Below the pieces are notes generated by a model. The model had not been told where the DNA came from. It did not search any database and saw only the letters and a list, made by a program, of their open reading frames with translations. Positions 7,345-31,938 of a DNA stretch of 64,000 nucleotides are shown here, one piece after another. The position numbers and the translations under genes were made by a program. The DNA is from a virus (lineage: Duplodnaviria > Caudoviricetes), in IMG/VR virus record IMGVR_UViG_3300028738_000008; one strand, written 5' to 3'. Numbering within the stretch: position 1 is the first letter of the stretch; every line of letters starts with the position of its first letter.

Positions 7345-7373
7345 TGTAACAAACAAAAAGTTTGCTCGTATAA
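7345..7373 (+). promoter_or_regulatory. ECF-type promoter 1
   Basis: TGTAAC-N16-CGTATAA. Confidence 0.85.
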
Positions 7374-7394
7374 GCGAGAAAATAATACGAACGA

Positions 7395-8279
7395 ATGACA
7401 GATTTAGAAGTTATTAACAAATTGCTTGCTTCGAAAAAGCCAAGCGATATTTTTGAGGCTGATTGGAAGAAAACATACATTACGTATTCCAAGCTAATTC
7501 ATCCAGACTATAGTTCATTATCCAAAGCAAGCGAAGCAATGGCAATCCTCAACGGTTATAAGGATTTAAAGGAAAATGGCGCAGAGTATGAGGATGAAGC
7601 TGGTAAGTTTCGTGTCTTTGACGATAAGATAGTCTACGCAGTGACTGCGGCGAATAAAGCTTTAATCACCGCTTCGTACAATAACTATCGAATCTTCAAA
7701 CAAAAAACAGATGCTGCTTCAAAGAACTTTCAGAAATACATGCCTGAAAGCATGGAATTAACTGCCGATAAACTTACCGTACATTTATTGAATCGAGCAG
7801 TACCTCTTACAAATCAAAAATTGTCACAAGAGCATGTTAATTGGATATTCAGCAGACTGTTTGAATACTCATTATATATTCAAAGTCAAGGTTATTCCCA
7901 TTTAGGCTTTAATCCGACATCTGTATTCGTCGTGCCAGTTAATCATGGCATTATATGCACGACTTTTTATCACATGGCAAAACTGGACGGCAAAGCTAAG
8001 ACAATTTCAGCAAAATACAAAATGTGGTATCCAGCAACGCTTTTTACAAAGAAAATTGCGACAGATGATATTGATCTCGAATTAGCAAAGAAGATATCCT
8101 TATACTTGCTTGGCGACAAATCAGCCGCTGGTATGAAGCTAAAGACTGATAACTCCATTCACAAGGAGATATTAAGTTTCCTGATCACAAAACACGAATG
8201 CTCTTTAGATACCTATGCCAAGTACAGGGAACTATTGAAGAAGCATTTTCCGCCAAAATTTTTTGATTTGAATTTGTAA
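7395..8279 (+). CDS. J-domain (HPD) + degenerate protein-kinase-like domain
   Basis: WKKTY...LIHPD...AMAILN; kinase catalytic-loop position reads HLGFNPTS. Confidence 0.6.
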   Translation: MTDLEVINKLLASKKPSDIFEADWKKTYITYSKLIHPDYSSLSKASEAMAILNGYKDLKENGAEYEDEAGKFRVFDDKIVYAVTAANKALITASYNNYRIFKQKTDAASKNFQKYMPESMELTADKLTVHLLNRAVPLTNQKLSQEHVNWIFSRLFEYSLYIQSQGYSHLGFNPTSVFVVPVNHGIICTTFYHMAKLDGKAKTISAKYKMWYPATLFTKKIATDDIDLELAKKISLYLLGDKSAAGMKLKTDNSIHKEILSFLITKHECSLDTYAKYRELLKKHFPPKFFDLNL

Positions 8280-8296
8280 AAATAATTGCAAAATTT

Positions 8297-8325
8297 TGTA
8301 ACATTTTTAAAGTTCATACGTATAA
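8297..8325 (+). promoter_or_regulatory. ECF-type promoter 2
   Basis: TGTAAC-N16-CGTATAA. Confidence 0.85.
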
Positions 8326-8377
8326 GTTATTTTAAGTATCAATATAAACATCAATTTTTAATTTAAATTTTATTATC

Positions 8378-8503
8378 ATGGGAAATCCAGTACATTCAGA
8401 ATTCAAGTCTTTCGAAGAGGAAGCAGCAGCATCAGAAAATGCAACAGTGGTAGCACCAGCAGAAGAAGTTGCTAACGTTGTAACACCTGAGCCAGAAGCA
8501 TAA
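8378..8503 (+). CDS. 41-aa acidic peptide (not in ORF track)
   Basis: MGNPVHSEFKSFEEEAAASENATVVAPAEEVANVVTPEPEA; its TAA overlaps the vWA ATG (TAATG); first ORF after promoter 2. Confidence 0.6.
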   Translation: MGNPVHSEFKSFEEEAAASENATVVAPAEEVANVVTPEPEA

Positions 8504-29413: not shown

Positions 29414-29873
29414 AACAAATTTAAAATATAAAATGTATTTCCTTGTATTGGGTTCGCTGCAAGCTATCAATAAGGGTGTTCAAAATGTGCACTCAGCTTT
29501 AAGATACGCACGTGAATTTGGATATACTGACGAGTTTAATGACTTTCTCGATAATGATGAAACAGTAATTTTCTTAAATGGCGGAACAAGTAATTTCGAA
29601 ATGTGTGAAAATGGTTATTATCTTGGCACGTTGAATCAATTTATTGACATACTTCCACATGAAGTAAATTATTCTATATTCATTGAGCCAGATATTAACA
29701 ATGCTTTAACATCCGTCTGTCTATTAGCCGATGAAAGAGTATATGATTATTCTAAATATCCTGATTACGACTCAGAAGAGTTTACATCATATGAGCAATG
29801 GCTTTTGAGTATTGGCGGAGAAAAGAATGCTATTTTAAGGGAATTATTAAGGGAGAAAAAACTAGCGCAATGA
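29406..29873 (+). CDS. peptidyl-tRNA hydrolase 2 (Pth2)-like phage protein
   Basis: KMYFLV...KGVQ..H...TVIFLNGG...FIEPDINNALTSVC pattern. Confidence 0.55.
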   Translation: MNRTNLKYKMYFLVLGSLQAINKGVQNVHSALRYAREFGYTDEFNDFLDNDETVIFLNGGTSNFEMCENGYYLGTLNQFIDILPHEVNYSIFIEPDINNALTSVCLLADERVYDYSKYPDYDSEEFTSYEQWLLSIGGEKNAILRELLREKKLAQ

Positions 29874-30400
29874 CAACAGACCCAACATTCACGATTATAG
29901 TCGCTGTCAGTCTTGACGGTAAAATAGGTCATGACGATAAACTATTATGGCGCATACCCGAAGATTTAAAGCACTTCAAAGAAAACACTTTACATCAAGT
30001 GCTTCTTATGGGCTTAAATACCTTTAAGTTTTTGCCAGAGGCTGCTAAAAAGAACCGTAAGTTCATCATTCTTAATGGTAGTGAGGAAGAATTATCACAT
30101 GACTCAATTTTGTTTCAATGTGCCACAATATCTGAATTATTCGAAGAACTTAAATTTGATCAATATAAGGATATCAAAAATATCTTCATTGCTGGCGGTG
30201 CAATGGTTTATGAAACAATGTTACCTTTTTGCGACAAGGCTTTGATAACAATTGTGGAAGAAAGTTTTCCAAATGCTAATAAAGACTTTCCAGCCAAAGA
30301 GTTTTTAAGAACATTTAAATGTGATACCAAAACAGCTGTGTATACTCGAAGCACCTCAAATATAGTATATTCGTTTCTCGAATATTCGAGAATACTGTAA
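29870..30400 (+). CDS. folA: dihydrofolate reductase
   Basis: IIVAVSLDGKIG...LLWRIPEDLKHFKE.T...LLMG.NTF...IFIAGGA.VY. Confidence 0.92.
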   Translation: MTTDPTFTIIVAVSLDGKIGHDDKLLWRIPEDLKHFKENTLHQVLLMGLNTFKFLPEAAKKNRKFIILNGSEEELSHDSILFQCATISELFEELKFDQYKDIKNIFIAGGAMVYETMLPFCDKALITIVEESFPNANKDFPAKEFLRTFKCDTKTAVYTRSTSNIVYSFLEYSRIL

Positions 30401-30424
30401 CATTTTAAAAATAATTACGTATAA
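30396..30424 (+). promoter_or_regulatory. ECF-type promoter 12
   Basis: TGTAAC-N16-CGTATAA. Confidence 0.85.
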
Positions 30425-30476
30425 GACAATGTGTGTGGTTTTTCAACTATACGCATTGTCTTTTTAATATAAATAT

Positions 30477-31892
30477 ATGAACGATAGAGAACTTATATTA
30501 CCTAATGGTAAGCTAATTACCTTTAATGATCAACAATATGATGGGATAAAATTATTAAGAAACTGGCAAAAATCGGGTAATAAATTTTTTACGATGGCTG
30601 GATTTGCTGGAACAGGTAAAACGACTATTGTAAAAAAAATACTGGATGAAAGTAATCGAACAATTGCTGTTTCAGCACCTACACATAAAGCGAAAAAGGT
30701 TGTTGCAAGAACCACTGAACAGGAAGCTTTAACACTACAAGCTATTTGTGGTTTGCGACCAGATGTTGAACTATCGGATTTCAACCCAAATAGTCCACAA
30801 TTCAGCGTCATTGCAATTCCTAAGATTAGTAAATATGATATACTGGTAATTGACGAAGCATCTATGATCAATGCTGACCTTTTTGAACTAATAAAAACTT
30901 TATCGAGAAAATGTTCCACCCAAATATTGTTCATGGGCGACCCTGCGCAAATTCCGCCTATTGGCGAAAAGGAAAGTGTTGTATTTAGCGATCCCTCAAT
31001 AGACATACATTGGCTAACCAAAATTGAGAGGCAAAGTGATTCAAATTCATTATGTCAAATATACGACGCATTGAGAAATAACCTGAGCAGGTCTGACGGC
31101 GGTTTTAATAGGATTACAGACATAAATTCGGACGGCGAAGGAGTTATATTTACCAAGAGTAAAAAACTGTTTAGAGAGCTTCTATTGAACGAGTTCTCGT
31201 CAGATGAATTTAAAAAAGACACTGACCATGTTAAATTAATTGCATGGAGAAATGATACTGTTATGTATTCGAATAGACTGATCAGAGATAGCCTATTCGG
31301 TGTTGATGCGGATATCGTCGAAGTGAATGACTTATTAATGGGATATCGAAGCATTAGCGATGCTACACAGCAATATAATATCATTGAAAATTCTGCTGAC
31401 TACAGGATTGTCACAAAATCAGACCTTGAACAGAACGCATTGGATATCTATGGATATTACGTAAAACTAAGGGAGAACACTGGATTTGGAAAGTTCTCAT
31501 TCAAAGATATCTTCATTGTGGACACGAGTAAAAGGGATAATTTGCATCTATATGCTGAGTATCATGATTTTTACAGAGACATGGCTAAAAAGAGTCCAAA
31601 ATTATGGAAAAAATACTATGAATTCCGCCGTAAAAATATGATTCTATGCAATATAAATGAATTTAGGAATGGCTCAGCAAGAGGTAGTGGTGACGTTATT
31701 GTAAAGGACTTGGACTACGGCTTTGCTGTTACAGGTCATAAGGCACAGGGGAGCACCTATGAAAAGGTATTCGTGCTTGAAGACGATATTGACGCCAATT
31801 GGATTGTTAAAGAACGAAATCAAATTAAGTATGTTGCATTGACACGACCATCCAAATCAGCAACAGTTTTATCGTCAAGGACAATTAATTAA
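30477..31892 (+). CDS. SF1B DNA helicase (Dda/RecD-like)
   Basis: GFAGTGKTT, APTHKA, IDEASM, GDPAQIPP, HKAQGSTY, YVALTR. Confidence 0.92.
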   Translation: MNDRELILPNGKLITFNDQQYDGIKLLRNWQKSGNKFFTMAGFAGTGKTTIVKKILDESNRTIAVSAPTHKAKKVVARTTEQEALTLQAICGLRPDVELSDFNPNSPQFSVIAIPKISKYDILVIDEASMINADLFELIKTLSRKCSTQILFMGDPAQIPPIGEKESVVFSDPSIDIHWLTKIERQSDSNSLCQIYDALRNNLSRSDGGFNRITDINSDGEGVIFTKSKKLFRELLLNEFSSDEFKKDTDHVKLIAWRNDTVMYSNRLIRDSLFGVDADIVEVNDLLMGYRSISDATQQYNIIENSADYRIVTKSDLEQNALDIYGYYVKLRENTGFGKFSFKDIFIVDTSKRDNLHLYAEYHDFYRDMAKKSPKLWKKYYEFRRKNMILCNINEFRNGSARGSGDVIVKDLDYGFAVTGHKAQGSTYEKVFVLEDDIDANWIVKERNQIKYVALTRPSKSATVLSSRTIN

Positions 31893-31909
31893 AAATATTT
31901 TGACATATT

Positions 31910-31938
31910 TGTAACAAAATATAAAATGCATCGTATAA
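31910..31938 (+). promoter_or_regulatory. ECF-type promoter 13
   Basis: TGTAAC-N16-CGTATAA. Confidence 0.85.

Follow-up and report, generated by a model that had tools for sequence, protein, structure and literature searches.

The locus considered here raises the question of which sigma factor reads a set of identical promoter-like sites in the DNA of an uncultured giant phage. The stretch analyzed, hereafter the window, comprises 64,000 nucleotides (nt) of the IMG/VR record IMGVR_UViG_3300028738_000008 (Duplodnaviria; Caudoviricetes), and the element in question, TGTAAC-N16-CGTATAA, recurs between positions 7,345 and 31,938. These sites are very probably extracytoplasmic function (ECF) sigma promoters that serve non-structural genes. 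The best explanation of the data as a whole, to which we assign a moderate degree of confidence, is that this promoter class is read by a canonical phage ECF sigma, here termed type i, and not by the divergent ECF-like sigma encoded in the window at 49271-49816, here termed type ii.

A pattern search over both strands of the entire window recovered 13 exact copies, all on the plus strand and none on the minus strand, and so reproduced the count, positions, orientation and invariant 16-bp spacer given in the preliminary description of this DNA. Its estimate that far less than one copy would be expected by chance also held, as the motif was absent from 100 dinucleotide-preserving shuffles of the window. 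When up to three mismatches were allowed, no one-mismatch site was found on either strand, two-mismatch sites numbered two (both on the minus strand), and three-mismatch sites occurred at background frequency. The two boxes were not found at a spacing of 15 or 17 nt anywhere in the window, and 13 of the 16 CGTATAA heptamers on the plus strand belong to the motif. The spacer sequence is unconstrained, except that the first box tends to be followed by [AC]TTT or AAAA.

Every one of the 13 sites combines a -35 box ending in AAC, a -10 box starting with CGT and 16 nt between them, which is the ECF signature that had been recognized previously. The SigW promoter of Bacillus subtilis is TGAAAC-N16-CGTA, and that of SigX is tGtAAC-N16-CGwC. 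The phage sites agree with these promoters in box positions and spacer; however, they come from organisms of another phylum, their -10 box is extended to CGTATAA, and the type-ii phage sigma has changed DNA-contact residues. As also described earlier, the copies lie shortly upstream of start codons: the first ATG of an open reading frame (ORF) of at least 30 codons follows the motif end by 6-53 nt, and the genes are co-oriented with the sites, all on the plus strand. Eleven sites are intergenic, and two reach into the final codons of the ORF before them, namely those at 20521 (within ORF 20192-20569) and at 30396 (at the end of the dihydrofolate reductase (DHFR) gene, 29798-30400). With the sites numbered P1 to P13 along the window (Table 1), terminator-like hairpins stand directly upstream of P1 and P4, and similar ones were seen by eye before P3 and P10. 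Each of these putative strong ECF (group IV sigma) promoters would start a short non-structural unit about 6 nt after CGTATAA, and as a set they would make up the promoter class through which a giant Bacteroidota phage expresses its non-structural (early-to-middle) genes.

This phage is not alone in carrying the motif, which many contigs of uncultured giant phages contain 20-52 times. A motif scan of IMG/VR yielded contigs, labeled G001-G022, in which copies were then counted against a reversed control pattern. Exact copies number 22 in G001 (a 95.8 kb fragment and the closest relative of the window), 43 in G002 (a fragment), 47 in G003 (321 kb, complete), 29 in G004 (a fragment), 52 in G021 (a fragment from the same sample as G001) and 34 in G022 (327 kb, complete), and the reversed pattern is absent from each of these contigs. 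The shorter core GTAAC-N16-CGTA is present in 18-38 copies in G006, G008, G018, G019 and G020. In the complete 327 kb genome G007, a single copy with the 16-nt spacer compares with 61 copies of GTAAC-N17-CGTA, the consensus there being TGTAAC-N17-CGTATAA. A further contig (L243), binned as a Poribacteria metagenome-assembled genome, holds four exact motif copies within 8 kb and is probably a phage or a misbinned Bacteroidota phage region.

The same sequence is also the consensus of a native promoter class of the hosts. Table S2 of Guerin et al. (2021; PMC9723704) gives SM6 promoters of Flavobacterium psychrophilum with mapped 5' ends, a class that was assigned to sigma-ECF. The promoter of THC0290_0009 reads tttGTAAC-N16-CGTATAAC, with a mapped start 6 nt after the box, provided that the 61-nt strings reported span -50 to +10. 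Five other SM6 promoters examined are degenerate, with ACAAC, ACAAT or GTAAC followed after 16 nt by CGTT or CGTC. Thus, the SM6 class shares with the phage sites the AAC at -35, the 16-nt spacer and the CGT at -12 to -10, and THC0290_0009 carries the exact TGTAAC-N16-CGTATAA, but the host sites are degenerate and rare (1-4 exact copies per genome), whereas 25 kb of the phage DNA hold 13 copies without variation.

A scan for TTGTAAC-N16-CGTATAA in one genome per prokaryote species returned at least 120 loci. Among the loci listed, 70 of 120 are from Bacteroidota, judged by record titles; the gene downstream is rpoD, encoding the 287-amino-acid primary sigma and starting after 33-52 nt, in 19 Bacteroidota species (L157, L170, L178, L185 and 15 others), and it is queA, directly downstream, in eight genomes of Bacteroidales type. 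Other downstream genes among these loci encode Band-7/HflK proteins and, in one Chitinophagaceae genome, an ECF sigma. Genes of the GFO_1088 family of ECF sigmas are preceded by TGTAAC-N16-CGTC in Maribacter and Flagellimonas and by TGTAGC-N16-CGTC in Flavobacterium omnivorum. The rpoD promoter points to a conserved influence of ECF sigmas on the housekeeping sigma, and a host ECF sigma could fire the phage promoters. Because host bacteria read the same motif, the proposal that it might serve as an orthogonal expression tool for Bacteroidota fails.

If the promoters are of this class, their reader would be host core RNA polymerase carrying an ECF sigma of SigW-like, host-like specificity, and two phage sigma families come into consideration. 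The window protein had been described as an ECF sigma, and it is indeed ECF-like: it scores 54.8 bits against TIGR02937 (cut-off 42.9) over residues 31-173 and matches the sigma-2 domain PF04542 (Sigma70_r2) with an E-value of 1.5e-8. Pfam gives no region-4 match in this protein, and some homologues carry PF08281/PF04545. Its 181 amino acids agree with the size of a two-domain sigma (~180-200 amino acids, without regions 1.1 or 3). This type-ii protein belongs to a divergent, phage-only family in the replication module. Among 5.8 billion proteins it has about 39 homologues, and several of these come from very long contigs; the place of its gene between those for a primase and an SbcC-like protein is kept in G001 and G003. 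The type-ii recognition helix reads T(V/I)SNKINYIK, and all orthologues examined have Ser and Tyr where RpoE has R171 and R176. The basic residue at R171 and the Arg at R176 that would go with SigW-like -35 (AAC) specificity are therefore lacking in the window protein.

Type-i sigmas are much closer to cellular ECFs. They score 71-105 bits against TIGR02937, compared with 55 for the window sigma; those scanned against Pfam show both domains above the cut-offs, and they have thousands of cellular relatives. Their recognition helix follows TVKVxIxRxR, with Lys/Arg and Arg at the R171 and R176 positions in nearly all members examined. Host sigmas tied to TGTAAC have the helix VRVTLSRAR or VKVYLHRAR, and that of SigW (PDB 5WUQ), which among solved structures is the best match for both phage families, is TVKTRIHRGR. 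The R171 position of RpoE sets the -31 base (Todor et al., 2020). In ten relatives (G002, G003, G004, G006, G007, G008, G018, G019, G021 and G022), a type-i gene immediately precedes the densest motif array and has the same orientation. A TAnnTTTG box precedes seven of the nine type-i genes in relatives whose upstream region was examined and also precedes the type-ii unit of the window, an arrangement expected of a phage sigma cascade, although the boxes are pattern matches only. In G021, two type-i genes lie inside the 52-promoter array, each behind a TACCTTTG box. A 19-amino-acid insertion after region 2 was found only in G007 among ten type-i proteins, a single case that coincides with the 17-nt spacer of that phage. 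The carrier of this insertion is the ECF sigma at the array head of G007, where motif copies fall, for example, within 824-10443 on the minus strand (loci L139-L155).

The array-head position, the SigW-like recognition helix and the phyletic and length patterns thus favor a type-i sigma as the most likely reader, which in relatives would be expressed early, from a host-type promoter, its gene heading the densest array. The preliminary description instead gave the regulon to the sigma at 49271-49816. This attribution is not supported, given the divergence of the family, its Ser/Tyr helix and the canonical ECF sigma at array heads in ten relatives, and we regard it as improbable, if still the foremost of the alternatives. 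The protein is a real ECF-like sigma whose TIGR02937 match would span both domains, and its gene stands behind host-type promoter-like sites, so that it would be made early. Co-occurrence with the motif across related phages, which had been suggested as a check, gave a divided answer: both are present in G001, G003, G006, G008, G019, G020 and G022, and in G020 (75% complete) type ii is the only one of the two families found, but G005 (91% complete) has the motif and type-i-like sigmas without type ii. Moreover, the type-ii helix lacks the Lys/Arg and Arg that SigW, the TGTAAC-linked host sigmas and the type-i phage sigmas have in common; the type-ii linker differs in length by tens of residues between phages whose promoters all have the 16-nt spacer; and type-ii genes never adjoin a motif array in the relatives examined, whereas type-i genes do so in ten genomes. 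The type-i assignment itself is not free of difficulty. Besides the case of G020, near-complete relatives nearly all carry both families, so that the two cannot be told apart by co-occurrence. The argument from residues depends on homology to RpoE and SigW, the association of spacer with linker on G007 as a single case, and the existence of a type-i sigma for this phage would follow from its relatives. In addition, TGTAAC-N16-CGTA was not found before the genes of the closest cellular type-i relatives (Fodinibius, Balneolaceae and Cyclobacteriaceae), and these relatives therefore provide no argument from autoregulation.

Two further explanations dispense with a phage sigma at these sites. A host ECF sigma alone might read the promoters, the phage having copied an rpoD-type host promoter while its own sigmas serve other purposes. 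The identity of the motif with a mapped SM6 promoter and its presence before rpoD in at least 19 species and before queA in at least eight speak for this idea. Host ECFs, however, are as a rule kept inactive by anti-sigmas, and those of F. psychrophilum are induced when nutrients are low, which would be a poor basis for 13-52 essential promoters, and a constant phage ECF gene at the array heads of ten phages argues that the phage supplies the factor; we therefore consider exclusive reading by the host unlikely, to a slightly greater degree than reading by the window sigma. Host ECF sigmas, which recognize the same sequence, may nonetheless contribute. It is highly improbable that the motif is no promoter at all but a mobile repeat or the binding site of another protein, such as a repressor or a factor for packaging or replication. 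Promoters seldom keep 13 bases exactly invariant, and the P6 copy is embedded in a perfect palindrome, yet two fixed boxes around a free 16-nt spacer, co-orientation with genes, location 6-53 nt before an ATG, frequent placement after terminator-like hairpins and a mapped transcription start at the identical sequence in a host are what promoters would show.

With the ECF class most likely assigned to type i, the type-ii sigma probably has a different target, possibly a late motif. In G007, AGTATTTATA is the most enriched upstream word, and no conserved -35 box was found at its sites there; this class consequently cannot be assigned to a two-domain sigma by architecture alone. The word is enriched over the control in G003, G006, G007 and G008, all of which have type ii, and not in G005, which lacks it. 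The pattern fits a role for type ii as a single-box late sigma similar to gp36 of coliphage phiEco32, a suggestion that turns on one negative genome, G005. In the window, GTATTTATAT occurs five times, mostly between 37 and 45 kb (10072-10081, 37895, 43636 on the minus strand, 43663 and 44979 on the minus strand); this is the single-box motif that forms the top upstream word in G007, where 61 GTATTTATA sites were counted. One GTATTTATAT copy lies before the GIY-YIG endonuclease gene, within an ECF-promoter unit, and at position 156345 of G007 the N16 copy is fused with a late box (TGTAAC-N16-CGTATTTATA).

The minus-strand half of the window holds a replication/recombination module (exonuclease, 197-amino-acid protein, primase, sigma, SbcC-like protein and RuvC) as well as virion-like genes. 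Three sites of Bacteroidota sigma-A type (TTG-N-TAnnTTTG) fall in intergenic gaps of the module, as pattern matches only. The replication module may use host sigma-A-type TAnnTTTG promoters, and virion-type genes may use the single-box AGTATTTATA motif. A tentative extension, which we think rather doubtful as a whole, is a three-tier program with two sigma families. A host-derived canonical ECF sigma would read copied rpoD-type promoters, so that the ECF response of a stressed host would also switch phage genes on; type ii would act as the late factor for AGTATTTATA, in the manner of phiEco32 gp36; and the type-i linker insertion might set the choice between a 16- and a 17-nt spacer. Protein determinants of this spacer preference have been reported as unknown in the literature.

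The strategy is that of the known phage sigma cascades of SPO1, T4 and phiEco32. In phiEco32, an early-made, distant phage sigma homologue, gp36, likewise redirects host polymerase to conserved phage promoters (PMC12276001). Unlike the two-box ECF motif, gp36 promoters consist of a single AATGTA box near -11.5 (PMC12276001), and phiEco32 has one sigma instead of two or three and a promoter that is not common to the host; the single-box AGTATTTATA class of the phages studied here resembles gp36 promoters more. The 'group 2' jumbo phages are also giant phages without their own polymerase, some of them infecting Bacteroidetes, and encode sigmas with a presumed role in recruiting the polymerase of the host (Iyer et al., 2021; PMC7824862). 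That survey, however, described minimal and RpoD-like sigmas without promoter motifs, and no ECF sigmas with promoter arrays. The ECF classification did not, by its own account, capture phage ECFs (PMC7826278), and a literature search for the motif together with ECF and phage found no description of ECF-type promoter arrays in these phages.

What emerges is a map of transcription, with 13 units, predicted starts and three promoter classes, for one block of the genome of an uncultured giant phage, as well as one invariant promoter that giant Bacteroidota phages of a broad clade have in common with their hosts, in which it also stands before the primary sigma gene. Two corrections to the earlier picture follow: the sites are probably read by a sigma other than the one encoded nearest to them, and in Bacteroidota the promoter is not orthogonal. 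Should the assignments of the sigmas be true, these phages would provide naturally paired sigmas and promoters, among them a variant with a 17- instead of a 16-nt spacer, on which ECF specificity could be studied.

Table 1. Promoter sites, their units and other sigma-related features of the window.
Feature	Position	Strand	Associated genes and remarks
P1	7345..7373	+	ATG 7395; 294 amino acids, weak kinase-like PHROG; hairpin 7288-7323 upstream
P2	8297..8325	+	First ATG 8378 (41-codon ORF), next 8503-9426 (phrog_2971)
P3	9478..9506	+	Unit 9525-13036: GIY-YIG endonuclease, adenylosuccinate-synthetase-like gene
P4	13093..13121	+	ATG 13148; terminator-like hairpin 13061-13087 before
P5	15121..15149	+	RtcB RNA ligase 15176-16501 downstream
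P6	16519..16547	+	Unit with ATP-grasp R2K gene; -35 box in inverted-repeat loop
P7	20521..20549	+	DNA methyltransferase 20572-21111, HD phosphohydrolase downstream
P8	22593..22621	+	Small ORFs, unit 22638-24613
P9	24642..24670	+	Ro60/TROVE-vWA gene 24677-26296; ATG 6 nt past box
P10	26942..26970	+	ATG 26994
P11	29103..29131	+	Unit with hydrolase, dihydrofolate reductase 29798-30400
P12	30396..30424	+	SF1 helicase 30477-31892; hairpin 30423-30462 over -10 box and predicted start
P13	31910..31938	+	Last promoter; 5.1-kb unit 31956-37053
Divergent ECF-like sigma (type ii)	49271..49816	-	Conserved unit: 197-amino-acid protein, primase, sigma, SbcC-like protein
Host sigma-A-type promoter-like site (TTG...TAAGTTTG)	50806..50835	-	Before primase and sigma; pattern match only
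Similar sigma-A-type site	53129-53159		Pattern match only
Similar sigma-A-type site	49229-49259		Pattern match only

The products of the motif-headed units are non-structural. They comprise a GIY-YIG endonuclease, an adenylosuccinate-synthetase-like protein, RtcB, an ATP-grasp protein, a DNA methyltransferase, an HD phosphohydrolase, a Ro60/TROVE protein with vWA, a hydrolase, a dihydrofolate reductase, an SF1 helicase and small membrane proteins; RtcB, Ro60/TROVE, the methylase and the helicase had already been placed in this block, correctly. The window has a G+C content of 34.5% and is phage DNA, and matching DNA was found in 24 peat metagenomes. No RNA data sets matching the 9.9-kb block or the RtcB unit were listed. 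Among GenBank phages, neither a DNA match to 45-52 kb nor a tblastn match to the 49271-49816 sigma was obtained, and no cultured relative was found.

Several sites show individual features. At P6, a perfect 13-bp inverted repeat, 16505-16517 / 16528-16540 (TAATGCCACGTAA / TTACGTGGCATTA), flanks the -35 box and occupies the spacer; it is kept in part in G001 (TTACGTGGC) and might act as an operator or form the hairpin that ends the RtcB transcript. The hairpin at P12, a terminator-like structure of 18 pairs with a T run, begins within the -10 box. Read-through from the DHFR gene would form this hairpin, whereas a transcript from ~30430 would miss its 5' arm, and the site looks like an overlapping terminator-promoter design. 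Because its ATG is only 6 nt after CGTATAA, the Ro60/TROVE mRNA is probably leaderless or nearly so (24642-24679). Directly after the Ro60 gene comes a sigma-A-type site at 26319-26348 (TTG...TACCTTTG), followed by a stretch at 26.3-26.9 kb without long ORFs. Finally, the adenylosuccinate-synthetase-like gene at 10925-12091 matches PF00709 (1e-46) and could encode a PurZ-type enzyme for 2-aminoadenine DNA.

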